From Sporopachydermia quercuum (taxonomy: Eukaryota): a stretch of 64,000 nucleotides of DNA. Positions 1 to 33,260 of this stretch are shown here, piece by piece. Under the pieces are notes generated by a model. The model saw only the letters and a list, made by a program, of their open reading frames with translations. It did no database searches and was not told the origin of the DNA. The DNA is taken from NCBI GenBank assembly GCA_001599295.1, contig BCGN01000001.1, positions 682,001-746,000 of the forward strand, given 5' to 3'. A program made the position numbers and the translations under genes. Each line of letters begins with the position of its first letter. The stretch's first letter is position 1.

Positions 1-328
1 GAGGGTTAGCTATTCTTTATCACTTGGAAGAATTAAAATCCTTTATGTGTAATGTCTGCACCATGAATGCGTCTGGGTGAAGCATAGAAATTGGTGTAAG
101 ACAGTTACAAGACTCGGTANATACTTGTTATTGGTCTCAGACCACAGCAGAAGCGATTGTTCTCGAGAACTAAAGTTGTAGTAATATAATAGTATAAAAC
201 TAGCTAGCACGCTTTTCAAGTGCTCATGTTAGCGATCTAACTGGTAGTGCCGATTGATACGATCAGTCATTAATTACACTCTAAAGCCATTTGACGGTCT
301 TTGATAACTACAAGAGCAATCAATCATT

Positions 329-3300
329 ATGAGCCTTGTACCTACAAGAAGATTCTCCGAAGATGACGGAATCTCATCAAATAACACACCTTCAAAAATT
401 CACGGCAGAGCTTACGATGCTGATTACATTTACGTACCTGTCATGGAATCGTCCTCAGTGAACTTCTCCAAAGTACTGAACTTTACGGNAGCTAAATCCA
501 ATGACCTGGTTGTTGCTAAAACAGACAAAATTGAAGTGTTCAACCTTACGAAGTCTTCTTCAAAACAGGAACCAACATTAATTTTGAAATCCTCTCTCAA
601 CCTCTTCCAGAAAATTATGGGCATGGTACAAATCACTCCTAGCAAGTGGAAGTTTGGATGGACCAACTCAACTATATTCAGCCCAGATCATCATACCGCA
701 CCATTAGATATGGTTGGCGTTTTGCTTGAAGATGGAACCTTTGGAATTGTCTATTACGAAAAAATTACCCAACGTTGTGAGATTGCTCTTGATTTCCGAA
801 CGAAAAGAACTAGACTTAGTGTTATTGCTCCTCTTTTATGCGGAGACTCCACAGGAAGAAGTATTGCCATTAACGACTCTGCCAATGATATTACTATTCT
901 GTTTATTGATCTATCCAACCTTGAAAAAGCTTACATTCATACATCAACTCATCAAACAGGTACGCTTGAGGCATCAAATATATACGACTTTGCTAAACCT
1001 GCTTCTATTCCTGATATGGGTATTATATCTATGACCTTCATTCCTCCTGATTCCAAGCATTCACTTGAAACCTCTCTAGCTTTACAAGTGGCAGACGAGC
1101 CTCATAAATCAATGAGAGACAAAGTAAACAACACGTTTATTCTAGCATGCTTAGCCAGAGACGTTTTCAAGGGCAGAATAGTTCATTTTTTCCGGTTCAG
1201 AAAACTGAAACCCAACCAACAAGTTGCAGGACCAAAAATCGTATCTGAGCTTGAATTCATCAACAAAATGCCCATTAGAGATGATAAATGCAATTTTATT
1301 GTCCCTGCTCCCAAGCTTTGTGGTGGTGTTTTTACTGTCGGTAGCAGATTCTGTGATTGGGTTCCTTTGACTTATGAGACTTTTCAGCACTACGTACCAG
1401 GTCGAATGTCGATAAAACTAGATAAGCCAACAGATAGATTCATCAGAGTGATCACATCGGTTGATCTGAAGACCAATTTGAAAGGCTATCCGGACGAATG
1501 TGTAAAGTTGTACGTTGGATGCGAAACTGGAGATATTTTCTCTCTCTATATAAAGGTTGTATCCCCTACGAAAATGCTATCTTCAAAGGTGGATTTAGGA
1601 AAAGTGACAGTTCCAACATGTATCTCGGAAATAACGCCGCAATTTCTGTTTGCTGGATCTCACTTATACGATTCTTGTGTGTGTGAAAAAATTGGGGATA
1701 AAGAATCTGGCTATAAGTTGAAGCACTTGATTTCGTTAGCTGGACTACCAGTGATTATTGATTTGGCAGTAGACTTTGAGAAGACAACCAATTCGTTGAC
1801 ATGTTATGCTGCTACTGGTGGGTTTTTCTCCTCTTCAGTTCGAAGGCTTCAATTCGGGTTGAAAACCGATGAAATAGAGGCATCTCCCATTGGACTATCG
1901 CTCGCCAATATAGGATCAATGATCCCTTTGAAAGATGATACTGTCATTCTGATAGATACAGTACTTGATGAAGAAACAAAGGTCATCACCTGGAGACAAG
2001 ATCCTTATATTGCAGACGTTCTAGATTCAAGAGTTGATCCTAGAGAAATGATTGCTGCTTGTAAAGAACTACATTGCATTGTTGCTAAAAATTGTTTGAT
2101 CAACACCATCGACACCGGAAATTTGGATTTTCCATGGAGTATATATGAATTCAGACCTTGTGATGGTTTCTTCACTGTTTCTGTTGTTTTCACTGATAAG
2201 TATGCTGTACTATTGTTTTCCAATAATGAATTAAGATTTTACAACACTACGAATGGTAAGGAGTTATTGTCATTTACTCCCAAAGAGGAAATTGCATTAT
2301 TTGACTGTGTATCGTTTCATGATAAGTACCATTTTTTCCTGACCTTCACCAGCATTTCCAATCCTCTACCTGGCATTTATGGATTTTATTGTGATCCTGC
2401 TGGTGAGAATCATAAAATTATTGATGTTGGTTCAACGATGATATCCTTATTGTCAATAACAGATGATAGCTCGATAGTTTCTAGTGTGAAATGTGTCTTC
2501 TCAGAACAGGATAACACTTTAGATATGTTCTTAGGTATGGAAGATGGAATGCTGAACGTTTATTCATTTTCAATCCATACCAGTTTGATAGAACAAAGTG
2601 TTGATGAAATGGATGGGATACAGAATGTTAGCTTACCATATGACCCGTATAATTTATCTGACGTTTCTATCAACAGTGCCAGTAACACCAATGATAATAA
2701 CAATGATAGTAACGAGAGCAAAATTAATGATTATGAATTTCTTACACTTGATGGCTTTTACATGGCAAAAATTGGATCTACCATTACATATTTAACGTGC
2801 GTCCATGAAGCAGATAGACGTCATGGGTTTATTGCCTCTTCCGGGGATTCTCTGGTGAGAATTTCATACAATGAGTCATCTGTTCATTACTGGAATTTCA
2901 CTAGTATCAATTGTGCATTGCCTTTCTTATGGTGTATCAAGTCTTATAATTCAGTGAAATCACCATTTTACGTTGACAATGTTAACAAAATTGAATCGTG
3001 CGATGAAGTAATTTCCATTCTAGCAACTGATGGTGAAACTCTTGTTTCCAAGAACATCTATTCAGACCATGCAGCCAAAGTTGATAGTTGGTCGTATAAA
3101 GGTTTAGTAAGAAAGATTATTAAACTGCCAGGTAATATTCTAGCTGTGGGCGGAATCAACATGCCTCAGGATAAACTCCCAGAAGAAACCATTAGCGAGG
3201 ACATTTATTGTGAGGCCCTCCTTGTCGATTGCAATACTATGGAAGAAATAGCAACTATTGAATTAGAACCTGGCGAGGAAATAGTTGCTATGTGTAATTT

Positions 3301-4819
3301 GAATTATAATGGCAATCAAGGACAACCCAATAAGGAGTTTTTCTCTAATTTCCATCAAGACAGCGCGACATCACCAGAATTGAAGCAAATTCTGTCCAAT
3401 ATGTTTGCTATTGGTACTATCTGTGTGTCAAAGAAAGTAAAATCAACAGTGACTAAATCCAAAATAAAAGTTTTTCGGAGATTTCCTAATAATAATTTTC
3501 TACTCCTGACTCAAGCTGTGACAAGAGATAATATTATAGCAATGGAAAACTATGGTGGACAAATGTTTGTTGTTGGAGTAAGCAACACTATTTTGCTTCT
3601 GGGCGTAGATATTGATAGCGATACAGGGAAGTGTTCTTTAAGACCTATGGTTAAGAAACCTTTAGAACTACCGTATCCTGTGACAGACATATCAATTCTC
3701 GACAAAGGAATATTTGTTTCCAATGCTATTCATGGTTATAATTTCTGTTGGGTTGAAGATAAGGAATCAGAGAGCGAGAACCATTTGTATGGTATCTCTG
3801 ATGAGAAGCTATGGAAATCTAACACAGCTAAACTGTCTACTATTCATATTGCTAAAACAAAAACTCCAGCATGTATAGAAGTAGTTGGATATCGAGAGAT
3901 TTTACTAGCCGATAGTCAAGGGAAAATCTCTGTTGTTTTCCAGGGTCAGCAATCATCTTATACACGTGAGGACGGAAGAGTGAATCCATTTTTTGACATT
4001 TCACCTACAGTATCGACGTTTTCGACAGATTTCAGAGAAAACATTAATGTCATCAAACGATTACAACCTGAGGACGATTTTTACGATTTGGAGGATTTAC
4101 CTATCGCTGTTATTGGTACTGTAAGTCAAACCCTTTGCTGATTTGTCCCATTCATAAGGAATTAGAAATAGTTTTCAAGTGTATATTATCATACTGTGAT
4201 TGAGATAATTATTATTTACTAACACATTTTCAGGCTGGAGGAGGATTATGGATTTGTCATGATAACAAGAAAACTGCCCAAGGAGTTCACGGTTATTTCA
4301 GACCCGTCAATGATCTGTTTGAAAATAGAAAATTGTATGTCCTTTTATGATTTATTGTCTTACTTTATTGATTATGATATAGATGGAAACAAAATCATGC
4401 AACATTCTCAACGTTATATGTACTATTGATACTAACCTATCTATAGGTCTCAATTTGAACAAAGCATTCGCTCGAAAATGTTTTATAAATCTCAGCAAAG
4501 AAATGAAGAGAATCAAGAAAACCAATGCGATAGAGAAGATGCGGCGTTGAGTTTATCATTCAATGCATACGATACTTTGAATTTCTACAAGCTTAAGAAC
4601 AGAAATGAAAACGAAACTGAGGGATTGAAGGATCCTGTTTTTCAAAAGAAGTGTTCAGATTTTCCGATTAGATTGGGTTTAAGTGCGGAATCTCCTGAAG
4701 GACCTATAGACGATGTACTATCATCTTACTCTAAAACAGTGCTGTACCACATAATGAGAGAGCCATTATCCAAGAATCTATTCTTTTCTGAAGCTCGAGA
4801 AGTTGCAGACAAGTCTTAG
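329..4819 (+). CDS. DDB1/Mms1/Rik1-family (CPSF_A-type triple beta-propeller) cullin adaptor, copy A; 3 exons, 1421 aa
   Basis: Exons 329-4120, 4234-4334, 4447-4819. Introns 4121-4233 (GTAAGT..TACTAAC..CAG, phase 0) and 4335-4446 (GTATGT..TACTAAC..TAG, phase 2); splicing joins in frame with ORF 4478-4819. Motifs GKVTVPTCI..FLFAGSHLYDS, LPVIIDLAV and TGGFFSSSVRRLQFG resemble DDB1 GETSIAECL..VVFVGSRLGDS, LGPIVDMCV and SGAFKEGSLRIIRNG as recalled. Confidence 0.75.
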
Positions 4820-5997
4820 GGTAATGTTTAACGGATAATAAGGGTTGTTTCTTGTTTATTGATTTTATTATCTTTTTGATATGAGAATGAGATTAGTCAT
4901 TGTCAATTTTAAGGTACAGTAACAGTGCGGATGAATAATAAATAAATATGTATGCAGATAAGCTCAAAAGTAAGTCTATATGGTAGTTCAATTATCACTG
5001 TAGTGTATCTTTGAAATTTAAAGAAAATCCCTGGCAAACTTCAGGAGCACGAGACAAGCGTAGTGGTTGATCTGTAATTATAAATCTCTTTGGAGATTGT
5101 TTGTCCTGCGCAAAAGCAACTTCAGATCACGTAACATAGAACCACATTTCGTCTGAAAAGTTCTAATCACATGGTTGTAAACAGAATCAAGAGTCTTTCT
5201 TAAGTAGCAGACGGCAACACAGTTGAAAGACTGTTAATGTTAGAACTGCTGCTTTCAATTTTCTTTCGAGCATCCAATATGAAGAAGGTCTTATCCGTTT
5301 TTGTTGTCAATCATGTGGTAATGTCTAGTGATGTACTCCATTACTCATTATTCATGTATGCTTCTGCAGAGTCAAACTCATTCAATGCAGAAGGCAGAAC
5401 ACTACGCTTTCGTTCAACAAATTGATTTGTTCAATTAGTTGAATCCGTATTTGATACCTTGTTCTCAATAATAATAAAATTTAAAATCAGACAAATATAT
5501 TCTTCAAAGTGGTAAGAATCTGAATAGTTCTCATCTCAACCTACTCAACCAATCTCNAATAGAATGCACAGCTAACGCATTATACTGCGCCATTCTGCAT
5601 CATCCTGCAATGTCGGCATCACTGTACAATTAACTGGTTTCTTCATATCTCATTCTCATATTCTTTGATTACCAGCAAGATTTTATTTATTCCTAATCAG
5701 CATCAATCATAACGACAAAATCGTTGGTTTAGAAAAGAAACAGAGCTCAGTAGTCTCCAATTCCTGCTTTATTCACTACTATTAGCTGACCGCCTTCTTA
5801 CACCTTTGCTCTTTAGTCAATATGCATCTTACACTGGGAGTGATCTTCGATAAGAAAGGACATTCCAATATCGATTGATACTGATACAACAGAAGTATAC
5901 CAAGTTGGAGTGNATTCGAAAATCAGCGGTTCCTTTACCTACTNTTCTCATCTAAGTGCAATATCAGCTGTAACGAACTTTATTAAAAATATCCGCC

Positions 5998-8900
5998 ATG
6001 TCTTTTAAGGCTAAACACAAAGCGTTAACTTCATCCTCCTACAAATTGCATCCTTTAGTGGAGAACACAAGTATCACCAATGCTTGCTATATCCATTTTA
6101 TCTCGTCATCAGAAAAACATCTTGTCACTTGCACTAGAGAACATATAAATATCTATCAGTTCGGTAAAAGTGGGCTACAGAAGGTGAGATCGGAAACCCT
6201 TGAAAATAAGGAAGACATCTTTCTATCAATGATACCTCTGAGAGTGCATCCTAAGAGATCCCTGATAAGTACTCTGTCGACAAATGCTGAAAAAGGTCTG
6301 AACATTTTAAGAATCCACGTATTGCGTAATAATGAGTTTTTCTCTGTCTCCACAATTCATTTTGAGCAATCAATGATTGATAGTTTACCTGCTTTGCAAT
6401 GTTTTGATCCTATGTCCAAAATATTAGTGGTTCTCACCAATCCTGGGACTCTTTTTATCGGCCAGATTAAAAAAAATACTTTTGGAGGNGATAGGAAGAT
6501 NCCGTCTCTAGACTTTAATGCTCTAAGAAAAGATGTGATGTTTTGGGAATATAGAATGCACGTCTCAATTCCTGCTTTGAATATTGTCAATATGGCCTTT
6601 CCTACTACCAAGGAAATATCATATGAGTTTCAAATCATTTACTCATTTACTAAAGGTAAAATATCTACTCCAGTATTTCTAGCTGTCTTACATAATAACA
6701 GCGAGAGTAGTAAATTTATTGAGATCTTTCAATTTGAACAGAGGGCGGAGAATAAGAAAATTCTTTATTCTGATGATTATATTAACTTGAAATCTATTTT
6801 CAAAGAAGAACTGTTAGATATCTCTGCGTCAGTAGTTCAACCTGCTTCAAGAGCNCTCGGTGGTTTATTTGTTATTGGCAAGCAAACTATTTACTGGATC
6901 CCTAGNCCCATTCCTTATATTGAAGAAAATTACACAGGAAGGATACCTAAGATTTATTGGAAAATACCAAACAGAATAGTGCAGATCCCATTGGCTTGCA
7001 TCATTCCTATTCAAGCTATTACTAGTCTTGAGGATAATGATACTCAGTATATTCTTGGAACAGAAACTGGTGAGACACTCATAATGAATATTGAGTATGA
7101 AATTGATGAGGAAGCAAATAAAAGGAATGGCAATGATCAAGTGGACGATTCGCGCGTAGAATTAATGAGAGAGAATCATTGGTATAATTATTCGACACCA
7201 CGATCCATTGTTGATTCAGATGATGAACTAGAAGAGAGATCGTTTAATGTTGTGGGCGTTAAAGACATAACTATCCACCCTTCTGGTAGAACAACGATTC
7301 CAACCTGTCTGGTACATCTGAAAGGTGAATACTTCTTTGCCGGTTCTTCTATGCATAATTCATGTTTGTTTTCTTATGATTTCTCTGATCAGCTGTTTAA
7401 ACCAATTCAGGAACTAATTGGATCTCCTCCGATTCTTGATATTGCGGTAGAGATAAATGCAAAGTCAAATACTTTCACTGCATATTCTGCTGCTGGTGGA
7501 TTCTTTAGCGGCTCCATCAAAAAATACTCCTTCGGTTTGAAAGCAACAAATCACGTCTTCACAGGAATTGAGGTAAATCCAAGCATCAGTGGTGTCAAAA
7601 CTGTGGGGAAAGACTTGCTGNTAATTTCTTCTGATGATCCTGAAGAAAAATACCAGTGGTATAAAATTGATTATACTACAATGAATACTAAGAAAATTAA
7701 CTTCCCTTTACCGTTAATTGAAAATATCATTGGTTTCAATGATCGCAAGAACTTGATGTTTACTGGCACTTCAGTCATAAACACCAAATTTCTTACTATC
7801 GAGCCTTTGCCTTTTTTGAATGAGAAAATCGGCAAAAAGATAACTTCTATCGCCACATCTAATGATCAAACATGTTTTCAAATCGGTGACTCAACACTAG
7901 TAGTAACGGATGAAAATTTCCAAGAAATCGCCTGTTATGAAAACTCTGATGAGATTTCTAGTTTTGATTTCTGCTCTTTCTATTATAAGGGAAGCAATGT
8001 GGTAATCATTTGTTTCTACAAGAACAATGGTGATATTATGTTTCTTAAATTTGCTGCCACTTCAAAAGGTTCGAAGAGAAAGAGACATTTTGCTAATCAT
8101 CAGAAGGAAAGCAATAGACGAAGTACACTTGAATTGGATCAAGAGAAGCTTGTATCGAAAGAAGCTTCTCTTTCAGATCTGAAAGTAACCCGCGCTTTTG
8201 AAGATGCAGCTGAAAATCCTGACTCGTGTTATATTTTCATTTGGGCCCCAACAACAGGTGGTGTGCTTAATATTTATGCTTACTCTGTTCATGATGATTT
8301 ACTGAATACCGTCCCTTTGATGAGCCTGTCAGTAAGCAGTTCTGCTATCTCATTATCGAAATGCTCTGAAACTAAGCAGTTTTGCGATATAATTATTCAA
8401 ACCGAGCAACAGCTTTTCACAGTGAAAAGATACTCACTAGCTTTACATTCCACCTCGGAATTTACCTATTGTTTGGTGAAAATATGTGGGAATAGTCCTG
8501 TGTTACATTCTATTTGCTACGAGAACAAGCTGTTAAATGAACGAGATCCGTTTGCTGAATCTGACCCTTTACATTGCTATTGCTTGGTAACGTTAGACAG
8601 GAGTGATAATGTATGCATATCTTTGGTTGATGATAAAATATCTTGTGATCACGAGATTCTAACATTGAATATGCTCGTGAGGAGGATACTGTATAATGAA
8701 CGTCGGAATTGTATTATTGCTGGAGCCGTTTCTTTTGCTGGTTTACTTAATCAACCAAATGTTGGTGATCTGAAAAGCCTGAGTAACAGTAGTCAACAGC
8801 TTGAATCATTTGTTTTATTGGTTGATAAGAATAGCATGAAAGAAGAATTCAGATTCAAGCTTGGTATTGGTGAAGAGTTTACTTCTATGTGTTCTCTTGA

Positions 8901-10244
8901 TCTTGATGGTAACCAAAGCAATTTTGATTTGTTTTCCGACGATAACAAGATCAAATTTGCTGTTCTCGAAGAATCTATTGATACAGAAATACGGGAATTG
9001 TTTTCTCGACTTATAGTTGTTGCCTCAAATGAAATGGTATCTTCGTTAAGTACTTTACGATTGTTTGAAATAGAACGAGGAAAGAGTAGGAAACTGAAGG
9101 AATTACATAAATTCACAACTCATCACGACATTCTNGCAGTTGCAAATTATGGAGGCCAAATGTTTGTTGTTGGGGAAGGTAGCAACTTGTCATTGTTTGG
9201 AGTATATGAGCGAGATGGAAAGTTAGTTATTGACCGAGCGATGTATCATAATGGATTTGCCCAAGATCAAATAACGGAAATCACCATTCGAGATAAAGGT
9301 ATCGTTGCTTCAAGGTTAGGTTCTGGGTATACATTAGGTAGAATCAATGATGAAAGTGCAAAAGATGAAAGACTTCCATATGGGCAAAACGATGAGATCA
9401 TCAGAAATCATGGAAAAGGCAAATTTGTAGTACGNTCATCGAATGATGGAGCATGGCCTTTAGCGGTTGAACTGGTTGGACCAAGTACTTTCATGATGTC
9501 TTATGACAATAATAAGACGTCTTTTTTCAGATTCAAAGGAGATTGCAGTGAAGAAAAGAATGCTGATAAACGATTGGCGAAAAGAGACAAAGGTAATACT
9601 TATTTCAACATGATGAACAAGTATGAGCAGACCGGTTCATTGATTGAATTGTTCGACGGTGTTAATGTCATTAGAAGTATTCCAACAAAGCTCTCAGATG
9701 GGTTGCACCTCAAGAGTAATAAAACGAGGCCGGCTGTTCTGCTTGGGACTGTATGTTAATATTTGAAATATTGTTATTTGGAGCAGTTAATTTGGAGCTG
9801 AGTTCTTTGATGATTATTTGATGTGCTAACAATTGATAAACGTTTAGAAATCTGGAGCCATATACTTTTTGGATGAGAACATTGACAAAGAAAGCTACGA
9901 GGACAATAAATAGTAAGTATTTTACGACAGCATGTGTTTGAATGCTCGTGCTTATCATATCCTATGATATTTTTGATTTCTGGTTGACTAACACTTATTT
10001 TTCCTCTTATTAGCAATAGGGTGGAATTTCCAAATTCTCAGCTTCAGAATAGTCACTCTAACCAGGAGAATGTAAGTCATGCATCAAGGGATAGTGCTGG
10101 TTTGAAAAGATACAACTTGTTTCCAGTGTTTGACTTTGTGACTCATATTCTCTCTGCTTTTAGGTAGGACGGAAGGCAGGTTATATGGATTTGGGTAGTT
10201 ATTTGAATGTCTTATTTCATGGCTATGTAACTATAGAAAATTGA
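5998..10244 (+). CDS. DDB1/Mms1/Rik1-family cullin adaptor, copy B; 3-4 exons
   Basis: Exon 1 5998-9750; intron 9751-9847 (GTATGT..TGCTAAC..TAG, phase 0); exon 9848-9912; intron 9913-10013 (GTAAGT..GACTAAC..TAG, phase 2); exon from 10014. It ends at TAG 10165-10167 or, if 10072-10163 is a third intron, at TGA 10242-10244. Same motifs as copy A (GRTTIPTCL..YFFAGSSMHNS, PPILDIAV, AGGFFSGSIKKYSFG, NYGGQMFVVG). Confidence 0.72.
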
Positions 10245-10653
10245 ACTGTTTATATTATGATGCAACTGCTTGCAATAACCGATAGATACAATTCTTACAA
10301 TACTCATCGTTTCACCAATCCGTATTCTATTAAGATATATTTATAGTACATACATTATGTAGATGCGTAAGTAAGTTATAACCATTTCTAGCATTTCATG
10401 ACTGATGAAAAATCGTAAGTCATGAAATGTTTCCAAGTTCCAGAAGTATATACAACAAAACTAACTGAATAGTTCAAGTCAAATTATCATCATAGTATAA
10501 TCATTTATACTTAGGATAACAATCATGCTATCCATGTACATAAAAGATGACACTAAATTGATTATAATATACCACTAGAACAGAAACATCTAGATCAGGC
10601 ATATTGCTTTAAAAAAGTAATTGAGTACACATAAAATCCATAAAGCGTAGAAT

Positions 10654-11034
10654 TTAAATGAGTAAAGTCTCAATTTTGTCCTTAATAGCAAAGATCTGAG
10701 TCTTCAATTGAGAAGCATCGTTAGATGTGACAGATGCAGCAATAACTGGTCTGGAAACACCACAAGCTCTTCCGAGAGCAACTCTGGAAGGAACGAAAAC
10801 ATAAGGAACGTTCTTATCTTCGCATAATAAAGGCAAATGAAGTAAAATTTCAATTGGTTCAGTATCAGCTGCCATGACAATAAATTCAGAGATACCTCTG
10901 TTGAGTGTCTTAGTAGCTTCGTTAGCACCTTTCTTTAATTGTCTCAAGTTGGCAGATTGTTGAATAACGTCTAAAATTTGTTGAGTCAAAGCTGAATCAG
11001 CTAAAGGAAAAGCCTTAGGATTAGGAGCAGACAT
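10654..11034 (-). CDS. SNU13: 15.5K/Snu13 K-turn RNA-binding protein, 126 aa
   Basis: [42 protein letters not shown] is near-identical to yeast Snu13. True ATG at 11034; the ORF-track start is a non-ATG extension. Confidence 0.98.
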
Positions 11035-11323
11035 TTTGAACTGAATTGTAACGATTAATCGGATTGTCTTTAAGTATAAGATATAACTTTGAGGTTGTTT
11101 ACTGAGATAGTTGTTTGCTTGCTGATTGTCAACCTGGGGTGAAAAGGTTCCTTGCAATCTGTTAGCTCGCCTTTATCTTTGATAAGATTATTACAATCTT
11201 TATTGTATCAAATTGAATGATAAATTGATGAGAAGTTTTGGTTTCGTTGATGGTAAGTTAAATCCTATATATTCTAACCAACTGATGCATGAATAGAAGA
11301 GAAAGAAGTTTTCAGTGTACTAC

Positions 11324-11333
11324 TGAAAAATTT
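11324..11333 (+). promoter_or_regulatory. RRPE (ribosome-biogenesis promoter element) upstream of SNU13
   Basis: TGAAAAATTT about 290 bp upstream of the SNU13 ATG; fits a ribosome-biogenesis gene. Confidence 0.55.
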
Positions 11334-12009
11334 CTTAGCTATTTGAGAAAAAGATAATTTGTTAGAGATTGAATATTCACGCTTACTACTGTATTCATGG
11401 TATATTTGATCATACCTATATGATCATATATGATTACTTAATCAATATCTACATATATATCCTTCGGAGTAAGTTCACAGNAGCAAATTCTGAATGTATG
11501 GGTGTAATTATGCAGCCGAGTTCACACTTAGAGTTCATGCTGACATGCAATTCTCCTGCATTAAACCTGTATTACCGATATTTCTCGCATAATAACTCAA
11601 TGTATAAATATGCATTAATATACCACATCCGTAACCATGAGTATTCACATGTACATACTATATCATGTAAAATGTGTCTGCACAAATTGCCAACTACTTC
11701 TCATAATAGGCAGCCATTTCGTCCTGGGCTTCTTCCTTTTCTTTTCCAATGACTGGAGAGATACGAAGAGTTCAACTAAACATGATTCAAGAAAATAACA
11801 ATTATAAAATCACATTCTCCTGTAAAGAATTTAAGAATTGATCAATAGGATATATTATATTCCTGCTGGTAATTGATAGATTGTGTTGTTGTTTGTTAGA
11901 AGATAGCTGTCCTACCTAGCTTTATTACTGGGTTTATTTGTTTATAAAGCCAATTGCATCACTGATTACTTGAGAAAATACCAAATAATCAATCACAAAA
12001 ATATTTACA

Positions 12010-12459
12010 ATGTCTGATCTTTGGTATGTAAAGAGAGTTGAGTTGTTTGAAATTGAAGCAACAGATGATTGATTGAATTGTGGATTGATGAGAGATATAA
12101 ATGGTGATCTGATAGGAGGGAGGTTGAGGATACTACCAGTGAGACCGTAAATGACGTGTGACAACCAAGGTTTCAACAGTATTTTAGAATATGACATGAT
12201 ATAAGCTTGCAATTATGTTTTGAGAAATTAAAACGTTGGTTCAGTCAAGTTTGTCTTGATTGTTGTTCGAAGATAATACAATTGATAACAGCAGTTATGC
12301 GACTTTTCGGTTGGGTCAGATTGATCAATAAATCTACAATGTAATATCATCACTAAATGCGCTGAAGGTGAAAAATAGAGTAGAGTTTCGTTATACTGAA
12401 ATCAGACACAAAAAATTCTTACCATTTTGACTTTCTCGGTGTTCACACTGGCATTCACC

Positions 12460-12498
<39 letters not shown>

Positions 12499-13420
12499 GT
12501 CAGTCAGTCAGTCAGTCAATCAGGCTGTTGATTTTTACTTCATATGACACAATAGGAAAAAGTTTTCATGATATTTGTTGTGCCTATCATAAAATTACCT
12601 ACTAACTGCTATATTTATTTAGCCCGGTTTACGCTGTATGGATTTGTTTTTGAACATAAGCAGTTTGCTTGAACTATGTGGAATATGCGTATAGATATCA
12701 GAATGCATTATTACTACTGCGTCATATTCCTACCTTTTTCTTGGCTTTCATTCTAACTCTTTATTATCAGCCATTTTTTGGATCTATGGGATGTGCTGCT
12801 GCCATCATCTTCACCTGTATGTTTTCATTTGTTTTGTAGTATGATGTGATAGTGCATTCAAGAACACTTGCATCTATACTTTGATATTATTTTGACCGTA
12901 CATTTCATTATCTAACACATATATTAGGTTTCGGTGCTTCTTACGGTACTGCTAAAGCTGGTGTCGGTATTTGCGCTACCTGTGTTTTAAGACCTGATTT
13001 ACTTGTCAAGAGTAAGTATTAGTTGCATAACATATTATTGAATACCTAACTCAGCATATTGAACAGCTCCATACTAATATTGTGATCATTATAGATATCA
13101 TTCCCGTCATTATGGCAGGTATCATTGCCATTTACGGTTTAGTCGTCTCCGTTTTGGTTTCCGATTCCCTTAAACAACAGCAAGCCTTATACACTGGTTT
13201 CATTCAACTGGGTGCAGGTTTATCTGTTGGTTTGGCAGGTTTAGCTGCTGGTTTCGCCATTGGTATCGTTGGTGATGCTGGTGTTAGAGGTACTGCTCAA
13301 CAACCAAGATTATTCGTTGGTATGGTTTTGATTCTTATTTTCGCTGAAGTCTTGGGTCTTTACGGACTTATTGTTGCTTTATTGTTGAACTCTAGAGCAA
13401 CTCAAGATGTTGTTTGTTAA
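12010..13420 (+). CDS. VMA3: V-ATPase V0 proteolipid subunit c; 5 exons, 160 aa
   Basis: Exons 12010-12023, 12623-12635, 12771-12816, 12928-13011, 13095-13420 total 483 nt and give [73 protein letters not shown]. Donors GTATGT, GTATGG, GTATGT, GTAAGT; branch points TACTAAC, TTCTAAC, ATCTAAC, TACTAAT. Confidence 0.97.
12461..12523. repeat. Compound tetranucleotide microsatellite (CAAT)n(CAGT)n in VMA3 intron 1
   Basis: caatcaatca accaatcaatcaat...cagtcagtcagt..caatcag read directly. Confidence 0.95.
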
Positions 13421-13960
13421 TTTGATAAACTGGATATTCAGACGAAAGTGAGATGACAGTGAATTCCTCTCATGATTGGATGGATCAATCAAAGGTAAAA
13501 AATCAATAAGTAGCAAGCAAGCAACATGTGAGAGTATCAACAAGTTGTACACGTACTATGTCATTGAGATGTTATAGAATTTTCATCATATGATATACTC
13601 GTTTATGATTTGGAAAATTAAGTAAAGGAATTAATCGAAAACATACATGGATATTATATGTTATGTTACGTTAAGCTGTATTGTAATCATGTATTGATGA
13701 TCCATACTTTACGGGGTGATTAGTTTATCGTAGTGAATAAGTATACATTTCTGTTTCTAATGTTTCAATGTCTAAACAAGTAGGCGATCTCATGGCCATT
13801 ACAGCACTGTCTTATCGATCGATAAGTATACAACTTGTCAAATGGTGTACATTCACCTCTAAACTATCAACAGTACTATTGGAATTAAATACATTGCTGA
13901 AACTGAGATATATAATAATACCTTCCAATTCTTCGAATCAATTTTGTTCTTTATTTTTAA

Positions 13961-16816
13961 TCATAGCCCGGATACCATAAAAGACTTAGAAAGCTCTTTT
14001 GCTACACATATCCTTATTACCCTTAAAAACTCATTAACAGAAACCGCTCTCAAATCAGATCCTGCTAAAGTACATAATTTATAACGCCAATCATAGCCAG
14101 GAATAATCCGAGTAGATAATTCAAGATCTTCATTATCATCAAAACTAATGCAGTCGAATTTAAGATTATTACGAGCTGCCAATGTCTTTAACATAGTGAT
14201 TGCGGTTTCTTCATTATCTACTTCATCCAAATCATCTAAATTACCCGTTTGAATATCAAGAACTGTCATGAAGAACTGAAAAGATCTGTAGAAGAAATTG
14301 ATTTTATCTTGATGATCATCGCTATTCAGTTGATCCTGTGGTTTATCAACAAATTCGTATCTTAATGGGTTTTGTTTATCATTTTCTCGTGAAGGCGATG
14401 TTTTTTGTTCATGAGCAATAATACTTGGTTGGTATAATTGATCTAGATTGCCTTTACCAAACTCTAGTAGATCTATATAGTTGATGATATCTAATAGCTC
14501 TTCTGACGAGAATATTGACGGGTCTAACGCGTTTCTAGAGTCATCAAAAAGACACAGGATGTTCGCCAGAAGATTTAGCTGAAATCTTTCATTCAAATGA
14601 GGAAAGTTCAGTAGCTGAAGTAAGATGAATTTTGCATCTTTATATAATTGCTTGAGATTAACCAGTTCTTTGTTTCTGTCAGCATTATCATTAGTACTGA
14701 TAGCAGCAGTATCAATAGTGGTAGTGATAATAGTATTGCCTTGCTTGTTTTCCTCAAGTTCAAGTTCATGTCGTTTGATATAAATAGCTTCAAGCTTTTT
14801 GTAGAACTCTAATAGTACACCAAATGGTGCCAAGCATTGTCTAACAGTCGCACTGAGTAAATTCTCATCAAACTTANTAGGATTGTTAATGAATTCCATC
14901 AAATTCTCATCTTTGTTGCCAGAATGACCAAGTAGGAGTGCATCTTCGAATAACTTCCAGCAGTAACTAGCTATCGAGTTATAGTCATTGAGACCATTAT
15001 ATAATGCTAATGCTTCAAACAGCTTACCACCAAAAAGATATCTTCTAGCTAAAGCTTTAATTACCGACTCTTTAGTACTTTTGGTTATCAATGAAGGCTT
15101 GGATTCCATAAGACTTAGTATGAATTCCACATCATCTCCCTCGCGTATGAAGTATCTTGTAAGAAATTGATAAGCTGTTTCAACTCGTATATCTTTTACT
15201 TGGATCAGCTCGAGCATATCAAATCCAAGCTGCAGCATTGTTCTTTTCAGTTCTGAGGAGAAATCAGAGGATTCTTGAATACTTAAACATCCCTCTAATA
15301 GCTCACAGGCTAAAGAATGAAGTAAGTACTCTGAGATAGACGATGAGACAGTTGCTGTTTCGATAGCAGGATTAAGATCAAGTGCGTCTGAAACCTTTCC
15401 ATAGTTGATATCAGATAATAAGTGTTTGAAATTAGCAAAATAAGACACTATACAAGCGAATCCTAAGTCTAAAGCTTGTAAATGGGAAATTACTAGTAAA
15501 TAGTTCTTCCGTAATAGTTCCCAGCAAGCAAACTCCCAAACAATAGTAGAATCAACTGAAAGCTTCGTATCTATTAAATCTAGCATTTCCTTGAGTTTCC
15601 CTTCGTTGAAATAAAGGCCTAGATCACTGAAGTAAAGCAATGCTGATAATGCATCATACCATGTCTTCGAATGATTTAATATGATAAAATGGTTACCATC
15701 TAAGAATTCCAGTACTTGAGTGAGCTTATTTTTCACAGATACATTGTTTAATAATCTCAGATCAGGACTCATTAATAGCTTTTTAATACTAGACTTCCAT
15801 TCAATGAAGCTCGGATATGAAAACTTGTTAATACCAGGGAAAGCATCAATAATGTCTAGAATTGAAGATGCAATAACGTTTACTTCATTGCCTTCTTCCA
15901 AGAGTTTAGAATGTAAAAACAATGTATGCAAATTAGTAAAGCGGCCTCTTGAGATTAATTGGAAAACCTCAGGCCAGAATTCATTTGAATTGAAGTCTGG
16001 ATTAGTCTTGGAAGAGGCATTAATGGTAATAGGTGATGCATAACTAATCCAACTGACAATCTGTTCTGCTAACTTATCCGAAAATCCAAACTGCAAACTC
16101 TGAAAGCATCTGACTATCTTCAAGGCTTCCTGTATTGAGAGTTTAAGAGCTTCAGCTGATCCAATTGAATCAGAAGGTGATCTTTCTTGAGATCTCTCAT
16201 CAAGACTATCAAGTAGTATTTCTGCTTCTTTTATTAGATCATTAAATCCATTGTGAATCATATACTGTCTTCTGACAATTGCTTTAGTGGATCTATCAGA
16301 AATATCAGGTAGCTTGTTCAGCAGTTCCTGTAATATTCCAACAAAAGAGCGCGATAAAAATTGAATATATTCTGGGGTCAATTGAGTGGTGGGTGATATA
16401 TCACTTACAGGATAAATAGATGTGAAAGCAGCCAATTCGTTTGGTCTAAAGGAAGGATGTTCATTAGTTAAATTTTGGTAGGAAATCCATGCTAATCCAT
16501 CATTAGAAGAATTAGGATCAAGAGTGAACTTCACACATTTAGATTGTAGAGATAAAGATTTAGTCCCACCAGGAGGAATCGGCGTGTTTGGTAAATGTTC
16601 TTCTATAGTATTGACAACTTGCGTCATAGATTCCAGCAGATAGCTACTCAATTTGAAATCAGGCAGGTTCAATCCATTTTTTCCTGCTGCTATAGTGCTT
16701 TGTCGATCTTTTTTTTTTGTCTGATTCAAATGTGTTGGTTTGGTAAANAGTGAATCACTATTATTTGGTAGTGAGCCTAGGGTAGAACTTAGGCTGGAGT
16801 TCATGGCTCCTGACAT
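13961..16816 (-). CDS. NUP85: Nucleoporin Nup85 (Y-complex), about 951 aa
   Basis: Long uninterrupted ORF, first ATG 16816. FWPEVFQLISRG, SKTWYDALSALLY and DSTIVWEFAC..LQALD match recalled Nup85 helical-domain motifs. Confidence 0.8.
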   Translation of the reverse strand: MSGAMNSSLSSTLGSLPNNSDSXFTKPTHLNQTKKKDRQSTIAAGKNGLNLPDFKLSSYLLESMTQVVNTIEEHLPNTPIPPGGTKSLSLQSKCVKFTLDPNSSNDGLAWISYQNLTNEHPSFRPNELAAFTSIYPVSDISPTTQLTPEYIQFLSRSFVGILQELLNKLPDISDRSTKAIVRRQYMIHNGFNDLIKEAEILLDSLDERSQERSPSDSIGSAEALKLSIQEALKIVRCFQSLQFGFSDKLAEQIVSWISYASPITINASSKTNPDFNSNEFWPEVFQLISRGRFTNLHTLFLHSKLLEEGNEVNVIASSILDIIDAFPGINKFSYPSFIEWKSSIKKLLMSPDLRLLNNVSVKNKLTQVLEFLDGNHFIILNHSKTWYDALSALLYFSDLGLYFNEGKLKEMLDLIDTKLSVDSTIVWEFACWELLRKNYLLVISHLQALDLGFACIVSYFANFKHLLSDINYGKVSDALDLNPAIETATVSSSISEYLLHSLACELLEGCLSIQESSDFSSELKRTMLQLGFDMLELIQVKDIRVETAYQFLTRYFIREGDDVEFILSLMESKPSLITKSTKESVIKALARRYLFGGKLFEALALYNGLNDYNSIASYCWKLFEDALLLGHSGNKDENLMEFINNPXKFDENLLSATVRQCLAPFGVLLEFYKKLEAIYIKRHELELEENKQGNTIITTTIDTAAISTNDNADRNKELVNLKQLYKDAKFILLQLLNFPHLNERFQLNLLANILCLFDDSRNALDPSIFSSEELLDIINYIDLLEFGKGNLDQLYQPSIIAHEQKTSPSRENDKQNPLRYEFVDKPQDQLNSDDHQDKINFFYRSFQFFMTVLDIQTGNLDDLDEVDNEETAITMLKTLAARNNLKFDCISFDDNEDLELSTRIIPGYDWRYKLCTLAGSDLRAVSVNEFLRVIRICVAKELSKSFMVSGL

Positions 16817-17830
16817 CTTTTCCAATTATCCGTTAAGATGATGGACGCGGCGTATACTTAAGACGCCAACTGGATTTTGTACTTAGGTATTTAGAAGTCT
16901 AATTAGTAGTAGATGGCAGTGGAGATATAGAAACAAACGTTTTGATGGTGCATGATGTGTTAATCTTGTATATTATGAAAGCGATTTACAATAACGGTGC
17001 AAAAATCAAAAACTGCTTATATTCAACCATGGGATATGGGACAGGTTCACATCTACATCTAAAATAGAGGGGTAGTTTGTGAGATTAAAAAGGGTAGTTG
17101 CTAATTACTTCAATAAGAAGAAATAGGCTGAATGTATGAGATGGTCAGTGTATCTTATGACTGGTAGCCGGCTTTCAATATTGATTATGCTCATAATTTT
17201 AAGATTGTTCTCTGGATACAAAAGCTAAGCTAGCTGCTAAGTAAAGGGTTGAATTTTTGAGCTCTAATAGTATCGGGTAGAAGTACGTACTGAGGGATGT
17301 TCTACAGTGAGGAACAAAAGGATGATCTAAAATGAAGTGAACTAAAATAAAAAATTCATTAACTTAGAGGGTTTATCCAACTGGAGTAATTAAAATAAAC
17401 GTCTAACAAAATGATCTCGTCTGATAGATATCGCACTTCACATAAGTTGAAGTAGACTAAACAACACTTGTTCATATTTTNAAACGTTATAAAGACTTTT
17501 AATTCATTGAATTTTGTAAGGGTTTTTACATGTAAACCGACGAAGAACTACCAACAAAGATCTACTGAATACTAATTGCTGGCGACACATTATTTGTTGG
17601 TGACATATTAATTTATTATAAATAAGCTAATATCCAGATGCTTATCTTGCTTTATTATTCCTCTTAAATACCACGAAATAGCTATANATAAAAGGGCACG
17701 AATGGAGAAAAACAACATATAGTCACTAATAGGACGAATCTACGAGAGNCCCATAATCGGAGAGGGTTATCAGGGTNAATTATCTTACATATTTCTGTTA
17801 CAACCAGCTATGCATTACTTATTACTANAC

Positions 17831-17850
17831 CACGTGACCTTTCACGTGAC
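17831..17850. promoter_or_regulatory. Tandem CACGTGAC E-boxes (Cbf1/Tye7-type)
   Basis: cacgtgac-cttt-cacgtgac: two perfect sites 12 bp apart. Confidence 0.5.
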
Positions 17851-18072
17851 ACATTGGTATTTTACATCTATCTATATTTCTATTTGTACCTTTTATAAAT
17901 ATACTATTTACTTCGCTGATTATTTACTCTCATTCTTCTCTTTCTAATTAATAAGAAGAAGAAGGAGAAGAAGGAAAAAGAGTAAGAATTCTGATACAAT
18001 TCTTCAATTTTTCTTAAAATTCATTTTATTTTACTGAATGATGTATGATCAGACAGCAACACATTTCAAGCT

Positions 18073-18144
18073 GGGCGATTAGTGTAGTGGTTATCATACT
18101 TGCCTTCCAAGCAAGTGACAGGGGTTCGATTCTCCTATCGCTCA
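18073..18144 (+). tRNA. tRNA-Gly(TCC), no intron
   Basis: Acceptor GGGCGAT/ATCGCTC+A, A-box TAGTGTAGTGG, anticodon arm CTTGC-CTTCCAA-GCAAG, T-loop GGTTCGATTC, followed by a T-run. Confidence 0.97.
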
Positions 18145-19193
18145 TTTTAGTCGTGAAATTTTTAGATCTTTTTAAGTTTTTCAGANCTGAACCTTCAATC
18201 TTATTTTTTAAGTTGAGAAACTTGAATATACTGGTATTGACAGAGGTTTATATTGATTGGTACGTACTTTTAGAACATTTCTTTGCATGTATTCTTTTTC
18301 TAGGTAGCCTCTAATATTACTTCTTATTACTTCCTTTTTACTCAAATATTTCTAACAATATTTCAAATATCTTGCTTGTGTTTCTTTCCGATGAATGACA
18401 ATTTTCGCTTCTCTCAACCTGTTTCCTGATTTGAATTTAAACTCTCGTAACTGTTAGAATAGCGTTTCTTCTCAAACTTTAATTGAAGAGAATTAGATAA
18501 CCTGCGTACTTTTTGTGTTTTATATTATGATGATAACTATGTTCAATTATTCTTTGTTTACCATTACTCTATTCATTCAAATACCTTTGGAACAGACAAA
18601 TGACCCTTTTCGGTATCTTGCATACTGAAAACAAAGTATGCTATATCCCATCTAAAGCATCTAACTCAGAAGAAATATTAAGTAGATAGACATCTGGTTT
18701 ATCTTTCTCTTAACAGCTTGGAGGAAACTATTTCCTTTTCTCATTATACATCAACTTTCCCCTAAAATTTGTCGATATAATTATGTCTTCTGGTATTTGT
18801 AGACCATATTCAAATACTTCAGGTCGATCCCAAGGTATATACACCCCAGAAGATTATCTGAATATTGGAAGTAGTGAAAACAACGACGGAAGAAGCTATT
18901 CATTCTGGTAGGGACTTACTAGATGATATAGTGTTTATTGAAAAATTTACAATGCAAGAATGCTGTTACGAATTCATTCCTACATTACACTTAAGTTGAA
19001 TGTATGAAATATGAGCCACAAAGGAAACTACCGCATTGGCCAATACTTTATCAACAATTAAAGTAAGACATATTCTTGTCAGTTTCATTTTGTTTACCAT
19101 TACCTAGTTCCTAATACGTAATACCTAACACCCTAGTAATATAGCCAGCCAACTATTCATAACCTCTTTTTTTCCAATATCTCATTATTTTGT

Positions 19194-22100
19194 TTATTTC
19201 AACCCAAAACCTTCACTCATTTCAACCGCCATTTCTAATTTCTGCCTTAGCTTTTCTTTATTCCTATACATGTACAAACAAATCTCATTAAAACATGTAT
19301 GAGAACTAGGTAGTCTGTCGCAATCACCACCTAAATATGATATCTTGAATTTCAAATTACTAATTCCTGTTGCAGGAATTCGATCAGATCCTGTTACAAA
19401 TATCAGTAGTCTTTTCTGCATTTCGACGTTATAACACGTGAACAGCTCCCAGAACCATTTAACTACTGGTGAATTCTCTGCGGCCTGTATACTCGGCCAA
19501 CCGTGATACCTCACAACAGTTTTCAGTAATTCTATGTCTAAGCTTTCATTGGAACCGCAGATTAAGAGCTCAATTTCTTCAGGCGTAAATAATGATAATG
19601 CATTACCACCAATAACATGATGGAACCCTCTTTTGAATGGTTCAAACGCTCTTGCAATAGACACATCCAAGAAATATGCAACATACTTTTTAACATACTC
19701 TTTCCTGTTCTCTTTTGTGACAATAATATTTTCACCGTTAGGAATCAATGGCTCTGTTTTCATTAATCCAAAAATATTAGTGTCAACAGAAAACGTTAAT
19801 GAGAAGACTTCACTAAAATCACCCCCCTGGTACTGCAATAAAGCTTCGAGACTCCTTCCCTGTACAGGATAAAGTTCAGTGAATTCCGCCAAACCATAAT
19901 CGTAACCTAAAAGCTTCTTATACAAAGCAGAAGGAAACGCTAAATCTAAAATAATAGAATTATAAATAGCCAAGCCTAAAACCACACCAACAAGATAATA
20001 CTGTGTTGTTTTTTCAAAAGGTTGACTTGAAAACCAGCATTTTAGTGATTCTTCATCATAAACAAACATCCCATAGGAAGGATCAAGTAATTCTTTGGTT
20101 AATAATGCGAACCACTCTTTCTTAAGACCCCCTGCATCAATTCCTGGTTCTCCACTAAACTCTACTTTCAGGCTTTTCTTAAAATTATCCTCCTGTTGAG
20201 ATATACTTGTTAGAGAGTCTTCTGTGAGACAATCCCGTCGTACCTTTATTTTGAAATTAACATCGATTAATGTCTGCCGATCAATTGCATCAACAAATGC
20301 CTCTTCTGCTTTTCTTGCCATTTGTTTCCCAGCTTCGTATTGTAATATAACTGTTTTTGCGCCTAAGGATAATAAGAAAGGAAATTGGCAGAATATATGT
20401 TTCACTGTTTTGTTTGAGCCTAATAATGTAGAATCCGTTTGATCACTCAGTAACACATCAGTGTTTTCAATTGTTGTTTCAATGTCACAACTACTACTAC
20501 CAGCTATACCCGTAGGGCCAAAAGTAGAAGAGGTGGTCCAATTGTCCATGTATTTTTCCAACGCAGATTTCACGCTTTTATTCTTTCCTGCTAAAGCGGA
20601 CAATGAAATCAATGAAGAGGGNGATTTTTTCATTTTACCTGAATTATGACTTGTTTGCCATCTCTCAAAATCAGCTTTAACATTAATATAATCACACATA
20701 GTGTTATAGAACTCTGATACTGGGCATTTGAGCTTCCCTGCACCTCTAGCTAAATTAGCTGTGAAAAAAATAGCTAAAACTCTTGCGCAGGTTTTAATTT
20801 GCCAGTCAAATGCATATACATTTGGATCTATAAGCATCTGCTTGCCCATCTTTGATTTTCCATTTGATCTTCCTAGTAGTACAGAGGGTAATCCTAATGA
20901 TGATATTAATCCATTGGGGCCATAATCATCTTTATTATCAAAAGAGTTGCTTGAATTGTTAATAGATCCATTAACATGAGTATTCATCCTGTTGACATCA
21001 TGGCTTGTGATAGGTTTACTAGGAGTAGCTGATTCCCTGTAATGTTTCAAGAGTCTGAACGAAATATATGAATTTAATAGCTGCACTTTGCTAACAAACA
21101 GCTCCTGGTCGTATCTTGCAAACCAGTTTAGTAAATAGTTCATTTGCTGTTCATTACACTGAGAAAGGACACCTGTTCCTCTTCTAACTATGCTGTAAGA
21201 TAATGTTTGTATTTCTTGGATTTCTGTATGAGCAACGTCTTTGAAGCTTTTCAGTAAATGAGAGTCAGGTAAACTAGTTCCAAAGGCACCTTGAGATAGT
21301 ACCGGATTCTCTAAAGCAATGAGTATCCAACAAAGATTTCTTGCATCTGATAAAGCATCTACTGGTAATTCTTTTAGCAGATTTTTTACTCCTAGCATGA
21401 AAGCAATGATAGGTTTGCAAGATTCTAAGGAAAACAATAAATCGTAGAAGGAATGTACTTCTGTCATGTCAAATCCTGGAGTTGAATGGTGTAATCTGTT
21501 TGCTTTTGACTGTTGTTTTATATTGCTGTTGAAAGATCCGTTAAGTTGTGCAAGAGAAATAGCTGTGGTATAGACAATTTGCTCTAATGGTGTAAAAAGT
21601 ATCTCGATATCGTTATTTGTTAATCTTGAATGGTTCAAGCCTTCTTTACATTTGCTGATGACTCTTTTAACAAGAGATAAGCTGAGAGGACGGCCAATTC
21701 CTGGTTTGAAGTCAACCGGTCCATGCAAAAGTACTGTGTTACATATTCCACCTGCATATGTTAGTATAAGTAGAAATAAATATAACTGAGTTGAAACAGC
21801 TGCAGAGAAACAGACGAAATAAAGTCCATTAACATTACCACAGATACATACATTTGACTTTCATTATACCTTTTGGATACTTTATAGAAGTACCACAGCA
21901 TCTACAATATGTAGTTACCTAGTAAGATAAGGAATCATTCGTTAGTAAACTCTTTCTTCGGTTTATCACGGTTCTTCTCGTCATCATACTTACATTATAA
22001 TCGACGCTGTCATTAACATCAAGATTATCAGAGAAAGACGAGTCACAGGTATCAATGGAATTCAAATCAGCTTTTTTTCCACCGTGTTTACGGCTATCAG

Positions 22101-31714: not shown

Positions 31715-32536
31715 TCAAATGGACTCCTCATCTTTTTCTATCTTCTTACTCTTGTCCTCTGTCATGTGGTCAGAGTTGAATATAGTAAGAATTCCGTCTT
31801 CTACGGAAGCATTCACTAAATTCAAAGCGCCCAAGTCTTGAAATAACTTCATTGTAACATTACTCTTATCTTCATCAGTTGGAGAGGCTCGATAAGATAG
31901 TAGATCAACACACCCTAATGATGCATTTTCAGGAAATGAAAGGTTGAAACATACTGATAGTAGATTTTGAGAAATTCCCGGTAGAAAGTCCAAAGCAGAA
32001 TTTAATGAAGGTAATGAGGCAATATAGTGATACTTATAGTGTTTCGTTGATGATGACAATAGCCGAGCAAGCGTTTTGATTTCCCCCTGTCCCAATTTCT
32101 CAGATACCGTGTCCCATTTATCTTTCAACGTTGGATCTTCTGGATAGGCGTTCACACATGCTGCAAAGAACTGTGGATCAATCTGTCTCAGGATACCATA
32201 CTTTGGACGTCTTGGAAACACAATCAAACTAGTTTCACTAGCAAATGTAAATAGTATCGGGTACTCTTTGATGATCTTATGATATAAAGTAAGTATCAAC
32301 GTTTCTTCACTGTACTTTGGATATACTGTTTTATCTATTTCCTCTTGCGGAATGTAGAAAGCTGAGTGAGTCTTTGATTTGTATTCAGGTTTTTGCCCAT
32401 AAAGTGAGTTTTCGTTCTCTGATCCGCTGAGGGTACTTGAATGGTGCTTTGAGGAGTTTGAGAGTGAGTATTTTTCTGGTAGTGAAAAGAAAGAGGGTGC
32501 TGCTTTAGTTGTATATCTCCTACTTATTCCCAGCAT
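31715..32536 (-). CDS. Probable mitochondrial protein, weakly uL10m (Mrpl11)-like, 273 aa
   Basis: Clean ATG ORF with presequence-like MLGISRRYTT; distant colinear resemblance to recalled Mrpl11 blocks (see findings). Confidence 0.55.
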   Translation of the reverse strand: MLGISRRYTTKAAPSFFSLPEKYSLSNSSKHHSSTLSGSENENSLYGQKPEYKSKTHSAFYIPQEEIDKTVYPKYSEETLILTLYHKIIKEYPILFTFASETSLIVFPRRPKYGILRQIDPQFFAACVNAYPEDPTLKDKWDTVSEKLGQGEIKTLARLLSSSTKHYKYHYIASLPSLNSALDFLPGISQNLLSVCFNLSFPENASLGCVDLLSYRASPTDEDKSNVTMKLFQDLGALNLVNASVEDGILTIFNSDHMTEDKSKKIEKDEESI

Positions 32537-33165: not shown

Positions 33166-33260
33166 GACACTTTGGCCGAGTGGTTAAGGCGGAAGACTCG
33201 AATCTTTTGAACGTTATCTTTTGGGCTCTGCCCGCGCAGGTTCGAATCCTGCAGGTGTCG
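33166..33260 (+). tRNA. tRNA-Ser(CGA) with 13-nt intron (33203-33215), SUP61-like
   Basis: Acceptor GACACTT/AGGTGTC+G, D-arm GCCGAGTGGTTAAGGC, anticodon CT-CGA-A then intron, long variable arm GGGCTCTGCCC, T-arm GCAGG-TTCGAAT-CCTGC, followed by a T-run. Confidence 0.96.

Follow-up and report, generated by a model that had tools for sequence, protein, structure and literature searches.

Two intact but strongly diverged tandem paralogs in Sporopachydermia quercuum, probably linkers of the DDB1/Mms1 branch

Two adjacent genes of Sporopachydermia quercuum raise the question of whether a budding-yeast-type genome has duplicated a DDB1-like linker of cullin-RING ligases and kept both copies at work. 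The genes, here called g1 and g2, lie head-to-tail on the + strand of the 64-kb stretch of contig BCGN01000001.1 that we analyzed as a whole (the window), and all coordinates are positions in it. We find two intact paralogs of the RSE1/DDB1/CPSF1 superfamily that share two intron positions at 24% protein identity. With moderate confidence we read both as maintained linkers of the DDB1/Mms1 branch that arose by a lineage-specific duplication.

Unspliced, the long frames span 329-4141 (g1) and 5998-9759 (g2) on the + strand, and each reaches a GTAAGT or GTATGT 5′ splice site directly 3′ of a Gly-Thr codon pair. Splicing from these sites gives the following gene models, for which the standard genetic code was assumed, as it was throughout.

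329..4120, + strand: g1 exon 1, 1264 codons, from open reading frame and translation; first propeller, middle region and third propeller (Pfam)
4121..4233, + strand: g1 intron 1, phase 0, 113 nt, GTAAGT...TACTAAC...CAG
4234..4334, + strand: g1 exon 2, 101 nt
4335..4446, + strand: g1 intron 2, phase 2, 112 nt, GTATGT...TACTAAC...TAG
4447..4819, + strand: g1 exon 3, C-terminal tail of about 124 aa, stop at 4817-4819
329-4819, + strand: g1 as a whole, three exons spliced to 1421 aa
5998..9750, + strand: g2 exon 1, 1251 codons with seven single-base Ns, from open reading frame and Pfam
9751..9847, + strand: g2 intron 1, phase 0, 97 nt, GTATGT...TGCTAAC...TAG
9848..9912, + strand: g2 exon 2, 65 nt
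9913..10013, + strand: g2 intron 2, phase 2, 101 nt, GTAAGT...GACTAAC...TAG
10014..10167, + strand: g2 exon 3, preferred version, stop at 10165-10167; whole g2 5998-10167, 1323 aa
10014-10071, intron 10072-10163, exon 10164-10244, + strand: g2 exon 3, alternative version; whole g2 1318 aa

The four firm introns, 97-113 nt long, open with GTAAGT or GTATGT, and in each of them a CTAAC branch box precedes the 3′ AG by 9-20 nt. The initial annotation had placed the end of g2 at 10244, which needs a third intron at 10072-10163; this doubtful intron lacks a CTAAC, although its 5′ site is good. In local alignment with the g1 tail, the unspliced g2 tail scores 37 (a score matched by 7 of 500 shuffles), and the tail with the third intron removed scores 29 (matched by 70 of 500). 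Because the third intron lacks CTAAC and the unspliced tail aligns better with the g1 tail, 10167 appears the likelier end of g2. No Pfam family was found in the exon 3 tail of g1.

Read from the sequence, both frames are intact. The first exons run uninterrupted for 1264 and 1251 codons, for which the chance is about 1e-40 each at 0.070 stops per random codon (local base composition). g1 contains one single-base N and the first exon of g2 contains seven; these are assembly ambiguities and were read as X in the proteins, not as stops. The window as a whole has 35 isolated single-base Ns amid continuous sequence (g1 and g2 account for 8), and they have the appearance of masked positions, ambiguous or heterozygous, and not of gaps.

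Two head-to-tail genes alike only in islands had been proposed for this locus, and both BLASTP and MAFFT confirm this description. Between the first-exon proteins, BLASTP returned two high-scoring segment pairs, one of 98 bits (E 2e-24, 23% identity over 348 columns) and one of 95 bits (E 2e-23, 27% identity over 331 columns), a match far beyond chance. The spliced proteins are identical at 284 of 1191 aligned positions (23.8%). The three motifs named in the initial annotation are all present in the MAFFT alignment (NYGGQMFVVG, identical; GGFFS.S.....FGLK; GEE...MC.L...GNQ), but their use as evidence of special kinship does not hold: they are core motifs of the whole superfamily, GGFFSSSV..FGLK lying over DDB1 SGAFKEGSLRIIRNGIGI at the end of the first propeller, and therefore the islands alone show no special kinship. 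As judged from the sequences, kinship of g1 and g2 rests on the pairwise E-values and on the introns they have in common.

The MAFFT alignment was built without intron information, and it nonetheless places intron 1 of both genes after column 1380 in phase 0 and intron 2 of both in column 1413 in phase 2, the succession of a phase-0 and a phase-2 intron that had been claimed. Both g1 introns (2/2) match the first two g2 introns in column and phase. The genome is intron-poor and of budding-yeast type, so that shared intron positions are meaningful; a simple intron-signal pattern has 11 matches in the 64-kb window, and four of these are the introns of g1 and g2.

The shared introns and open frames, together with a 44-bp island of DNA likeness, also uphold the proposal of an old DNA-level duplication with both copies intact. 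Compared as DNA, g1 and g2 have this one island (82%), around the decapeptide NYGGQMFVVG, with nothing else detectable; a repeat search recovered the same island and nothing else of note. The codons concerned are the following.

3548..3577, + strand: NYGGQMFVVG codons of g1
9145..9174, + strand: NYGGQMFVVG codons of g2, 26 of 30 nt as in g1

All four differences are synonymous, which indicates that the decapeptide has been kept by selection on the protein and not by recent gene conversion. We rejected recent gene conversion on this ground and because DNA likeness is confined to the 44-bp island. Retroposition is ruled out by the shared introns. We conclude from the sequences that the duplication was old, DNA-level and tandem, and that it copied a gene already carrying both introns. 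At 24% protein identity, synonymous sites are saturated between the copies. There is no third copy within the window.

A hidden Markov model scan, suggested in the initial annotation, placed both PF10433 (the RSE1/DDB1/CPSF1 first propeller; gathering cut-off 26.9 bits) and PF03178 (CPSF_A; cut-off 27 bits) above their cut-offs in both proteins. PF10433 scores 63.5 bits at residues 44-452 of g1 and 34.2 bits in g2. PF03178 scores 32.0 bits at residues 964-1140 of g1 and 28.6 bits in g2, the match covering the first half of the profile only. Between the first propeller and CPSF_A sits a region of about 390 aa, the right size for a second propeller. By ESM Atlas features, the top matches of g1 are DDB1/RSE1-type clusters (0.95-0.96), and an X-free piece of g2 (7624-9132) matches clusters bearing Beta-prop_RSE1_2nd (PF23726) and CPSF_A (0.95). 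On these profile and feature matches, g1 and g2 are genes of the RSE1/DDB1/CPSF1 three-propeller superfamily. We regard their paralogy, family, shared introns and intactness as established.

To which branch of the superfamily do they belong? A profile of the pair, searched against PDB at E up to 10, found 40 distinct sequences, of which 39 were DDB1 (best E 4.5e-5) and one was CPSF1 (E 2.9); no SF3B3, Rse1 or Cft1 chain was found within that limit. The profile aligns positions 24-83 with the DDB1 N-terminus and positions 387-513 with DDB1 274-406, and its 24 bits are carried by one 127-residue stretch. With single sequences, phmmer also ranked DDB1 best, over about 110-120 residues, at E 0.21 for g1 (12.2 bits) and E 0.024 for g2 (15.1 bits). 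A canonical fungal Ddb1 would align strongly with human DDB1 from end to end. Neither g1 nor g2 has clear full-length similarity to DDB1, and we rejected the identification of either as canonical Ddb1.

It is very improbable that g1 and g2 are instead strongly diverged Rse1 (SF3b130) and/or Cft1 (CPSF160). Rse1/SF3B3 and Cft1/CPSF160 belong to the same superfamily and share its Pfam families with g1 and g2, but they act in splicing and 3′ end processing and not with cullins. The Atlas matches of the g2 middle piece include SF3B3 and Cft1 clusters, and proteins of this genome can be very diverged, the window's Nup85 finding no solved Nup85. Solved structures of Rse1 and Cft1 exist from yeast and human, however, and neither g1 nor g2 had a significant match to any solved member, the sole CPSF1 match standing at E 2.9. 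Rse1 and Cft1 separated before the eukaryote radiation, and a mutual best match with shared introns would be unexpected of such a pair. As far as solved structures show, g1 and g2 thus appear to group with neither. With canonical Ddb1 and Rse1/Cft1 both seemingly set aside, g1 and g2 are left as proteins of the DDB1 branch that profiles alone recognize. Mms1 is such a protein, recognized as a member of the DDB1 branch by profiles only.

Wider searches for homologs returned no matches. In a word-indexed protein collection, the g1 query gave 7870 candidates and 0 matches, and a query with the g1/g2 alignment at E up to 10 gave 7642 candidates and 0 matches. With phmmer, g1 residues 71-1270 had 0 matches at E up to 0.001 among 1.84 billion representatives, and a metagenome scan met the peptide pattern in 406 stretches, 0 of which were confirmed as homologs. 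As a control we used the Nup85 gene of the window (13961-16816, - strand), which Pfam recognizes at E 5.9e-41; it was equally blank in the word-indexed collection, and phmmer found no solved Nup85 in PDB. The blanks for g1 and g2 therefore reflect the reach and coverage of these searches for this organism, whose proteins are far from the reach of PDB and of the word-indexed collection, and not uniqueness.

Among the systems known, g1 and g2 resemble Mms1 (S. cerevisiae YPR164W; S. pombe Mms1), a DDB1-like linker that serves the Rtt101/Cul8 ligase, in their large size, in carrying PF10433 N-terminally and CPSF_A nearer the C-terminus, and in a likeness to DDB1 that is visible to profiles only. 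They differ in standing as two tandem copies, an arrangement that we found described for Mms1 in no paper. According to PMC4743919 and PMC11763709, Mms1 is a DDB1-like linker between Rtt101 and Mms22. Its sequence is described as fast-evolving, with an orthologue unrecognizable in C. albicans, in the relevant part of PMC4683630. Passages of PMC7145719 state that Saccharomycotina lost Cul4 and Ddb1 early, that Lipomyces and Tortispora still have them, and that Rtt101-Mms1 covers part of the Cul4/Ddb1 role in budding yeasts, most of which are without Ddb1 and Cul4. Rtt101 itself is discussed as a fast-evolving Cul4 in an excerpt of PMC2785787.

DDB1 (human; S. pombe Ddb1; N. crassa DIM-8), the CRL4 linker, is the only solved family that the g1/g2 profile matched significantly. 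Its N-terminus and the last blades of its first propeller align with g1 and g2, which exceed the 1140-aa DDB1 chains in length by about 200-300 aa and differ from DDB1 in that the Pfam family of the second propeller is undetected in them.

A precedent for a second specialized assembly is Rik1 of S. pombe, a distant DDB1 homologue in CLRC, where, as the consulted portion of PMC11763709 has it, a diverged DDB1 paralog builds a second Cul4 assembly in one cell. Rik1 works with the H3K9 methyltransferase Clr4, and nothing ties g1 or g2 to heterochromatin. To our knowledge, Rik1 is not a tandem neighbor of its paralog. The initial annotation had credited S. pombe with Ddb1 and Rik1; both stand, but the count was incomplete, because S. 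pombe Mms1 is listed in Table 2 of PMC4683630. Fission yeast therefore has three DDB1-branch proteins, and several per ascomycete are not unprecedented. Searches of open-access full text brought up no budding yeast for which a gene like Mms1/DDB1 is described as duplicated or in tandem.

This background bears on an alternative that we hold to be quite improbable, namely that g1 and g2 are orthologues of two old DDB1-branch lineages (e.g., Mms1 and a Ddb1- or Rik1-like protein) that stand side by side and are not lineage-specific duplicates. The fission-yeast trio shows several DDB1-branch paralogs in one ascomycete (Mms1, PMC4683630 Table 2; Rik1, PMC11763709; besides Ddb1), early-branching Saccharomycotina retain Ddb1 and Cul4 in the account given in part of PMC7145719, and with 24% identity the pair by itself does not date the split. 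Yet neither copy is like canonical Ddb1 (best single-sequence E values of 0.02 and 0.21), and the matches between the copies (98 and 95 bits) far outscore the match of either to DDB1 (12-15 bits). They are also adjacent, in the same orientation and alike in two intron positions, all of which speaks for duplicates.

Identity between the copies varies along the protein as follows (residues of g1).

Residues 1-386: first propeller, N-terminal part, 19.3% identity
Residues 387-513: last blades of the first propeller, 35.2% identity
Residues 514-900: middle region, 20.1% identity
Residues 901-1264: third propeller, 27.8% identity

Divergence extends over the whole length and is greatest in three places: the N-terminal two-thirds of propeller one, the middle propeller and the C-terminal tail. 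The MAFFT alignment also shows in g2 an extended acidic insertion and a basic segment containing KRKR. Such a distribution would suit two scaffolds that share the fold and differ on their partner-binding surfaces, and it would suit equally one working copy beside one under relaxed constraint.

The latter possibility, in which a single copy (probably g1) would be the working Mms1-type cullin linker and g2 would be relaxed or would have moved to a non-cullin role, we consider unlikely. The long acidic and basic insertions of g2, a C-terminal tail shorter by about 75-100 aa and a weaker PF10433 match are what it would lead one to expect. Against it, the 1251-codon frame of g2 is open, splice signals are kept at both inherited intron positions, the core motifs of the superfamily are kept, and the phmmer match of g2 to DDB1 is no weaker than that of g1 (15.1 vs 12.2 bits).

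We therefore return to the reading that both copies are maintained linkers, and infer their linker function and division of labor by analogy. In DDB1 itself the cullin docks on the middle propeller, while a receptor helix is gripped between propellers one and three. An ancestral, intron-bearing gene of the DDB1/Mms1 branch would have undergone the old tandem DNA-level duplication that gave g1 and g2, and both copies would have been retained as intact genes. Each would most likely serve as the linker of a cullin-RING ligase, as DDB1 and Mms1 do, with its middle propeller gripping a cullin of the Rtt101/Cul4 type and the clamp of first and third propellers gripping substrate receptors. Because the copies have diverged throughout, they probably divided or changed partners. 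The further step, in which a single Mms1-type linker has split into two specialized scaffolds, each assembling a cullin ligase of its own in which the receptors, and perhaps even the cullin, are not those of the other, is tentative, and that such a split is an independent parallel to the division among Ddb1, Rik1 and Mms1 of fission yeast is, if true at all, an equally doubtful suggestion. A lineage with two distinct CRL4/Rtt101-type ligases, the idea with which the initial annotation closed, is speculation.

Several results weigh against maintained linkers of this branch. The putative branch assignment rests on weak DDB1 matches (24 bits) and on the absence of Rse1/Cft1 matches. The second-propeller family PF23726 had no match in a Pfam scan of g1 and g2 at E up to 1. 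Atlas recognition values were low (1552 and 1443) and the clusters for the g2 middle piece mixed (SF3B3, Cft1 and DDB1-like), so the Atlas supports the superfamily only. AlphaFold2 on a two-row alignment gave an unusable model (pLDDT 27.2, pTM 0.24), and the three-propeller fold is a prediction from sequence. The PF10433 score of g2 falls below that of g1 (34.2 vs 63.5 bits) and past intron 2 its tail has about 50 aa where that of g1 has about 124 aa, which could reflect relaxed constraint on g2. Finally, among the window's 14 other open reading frames of at least 200 aa, Pfam identified no cullin, Mms22 or obvious receptor gene.

The surroundings of the pair contain the following features.

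4820..5997, strand not applicable: spacer between g1 and g2, 1178 bp, presumed g2 promoter
10654-11034, - strand: L7Ae/Snu13-type gene, just downstream of g2
13112-13420, + strand: ATP-synt_C (proteolipid subunit c) exon downstream of g2, probably V-ATPase subunit c
33166-33260, + strand: 95-nt tRNA called by ARAGORN with a four-base 'cgaa' anticodon and no amino acid assigned, probably a misread intron-containing tRNA
46044-49673, - strand: 1209-aa protein with many ankyrin repeats, KRIT1-type ankyrin domain at 102.8 bits (cut-off 80)
54408-55421 (+), 55615-56649 (-) and 59053-60057 (-): three paralogous D-isomer-specific 2-hydroxyacid dehydrogenase genes within 6 kb

The spacer holds no open reading frame of at least 80 aa, no Rfam match (the Rfam scan covered 1-20000 of the window) and no ACGCG box. 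ACGCG cell-cycle boxes are absent upstream of both g1 and g2, and the 17 present window-wide are in line with the 14 expected by chance. The trio of 2-hydroxyacid dehydrogenase genes is a second local gene family expansion in the window. Two further open reading frames, 31715-32536 (-, 273 aa) and 35803-36864 (+, 353 aa), had no Pfam family at E up to 1e-5. CTG is used at 10.6 per 1000 codons, and the sole CTG in the aligned part of an m-AAA protease falls on a Leu of human AFG3L2, which lends weak support to the standard reading of CUG.

On present evidence, g1 and g2 appear from their sequences to be a lineage-specific paralog pair in a known family, with a function that would follow by analogy. 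The pair is a clean example of intron positions outliving protein likeness after duplication, at 24% identity. Rtt101-Mms1 is the budding-yeast stand-in for CRL4, in which one linker serves several receptors and pathways, and PMC11763709 and PMC4743919 name among its roles replication through damage, H3 hand-off, FACT, DNA-protein crosslinks and 25S rRNA decay. A lineage that has long kept two very different copies of the linker might have parted these roles; if so, the copies would help to sort which linker surfaces serve which partner. A specialized pair, if true, would offer a natural separation-of-function system for fork repair, histone hand-off, DNA-protein crosslink repair and ribosome decay.

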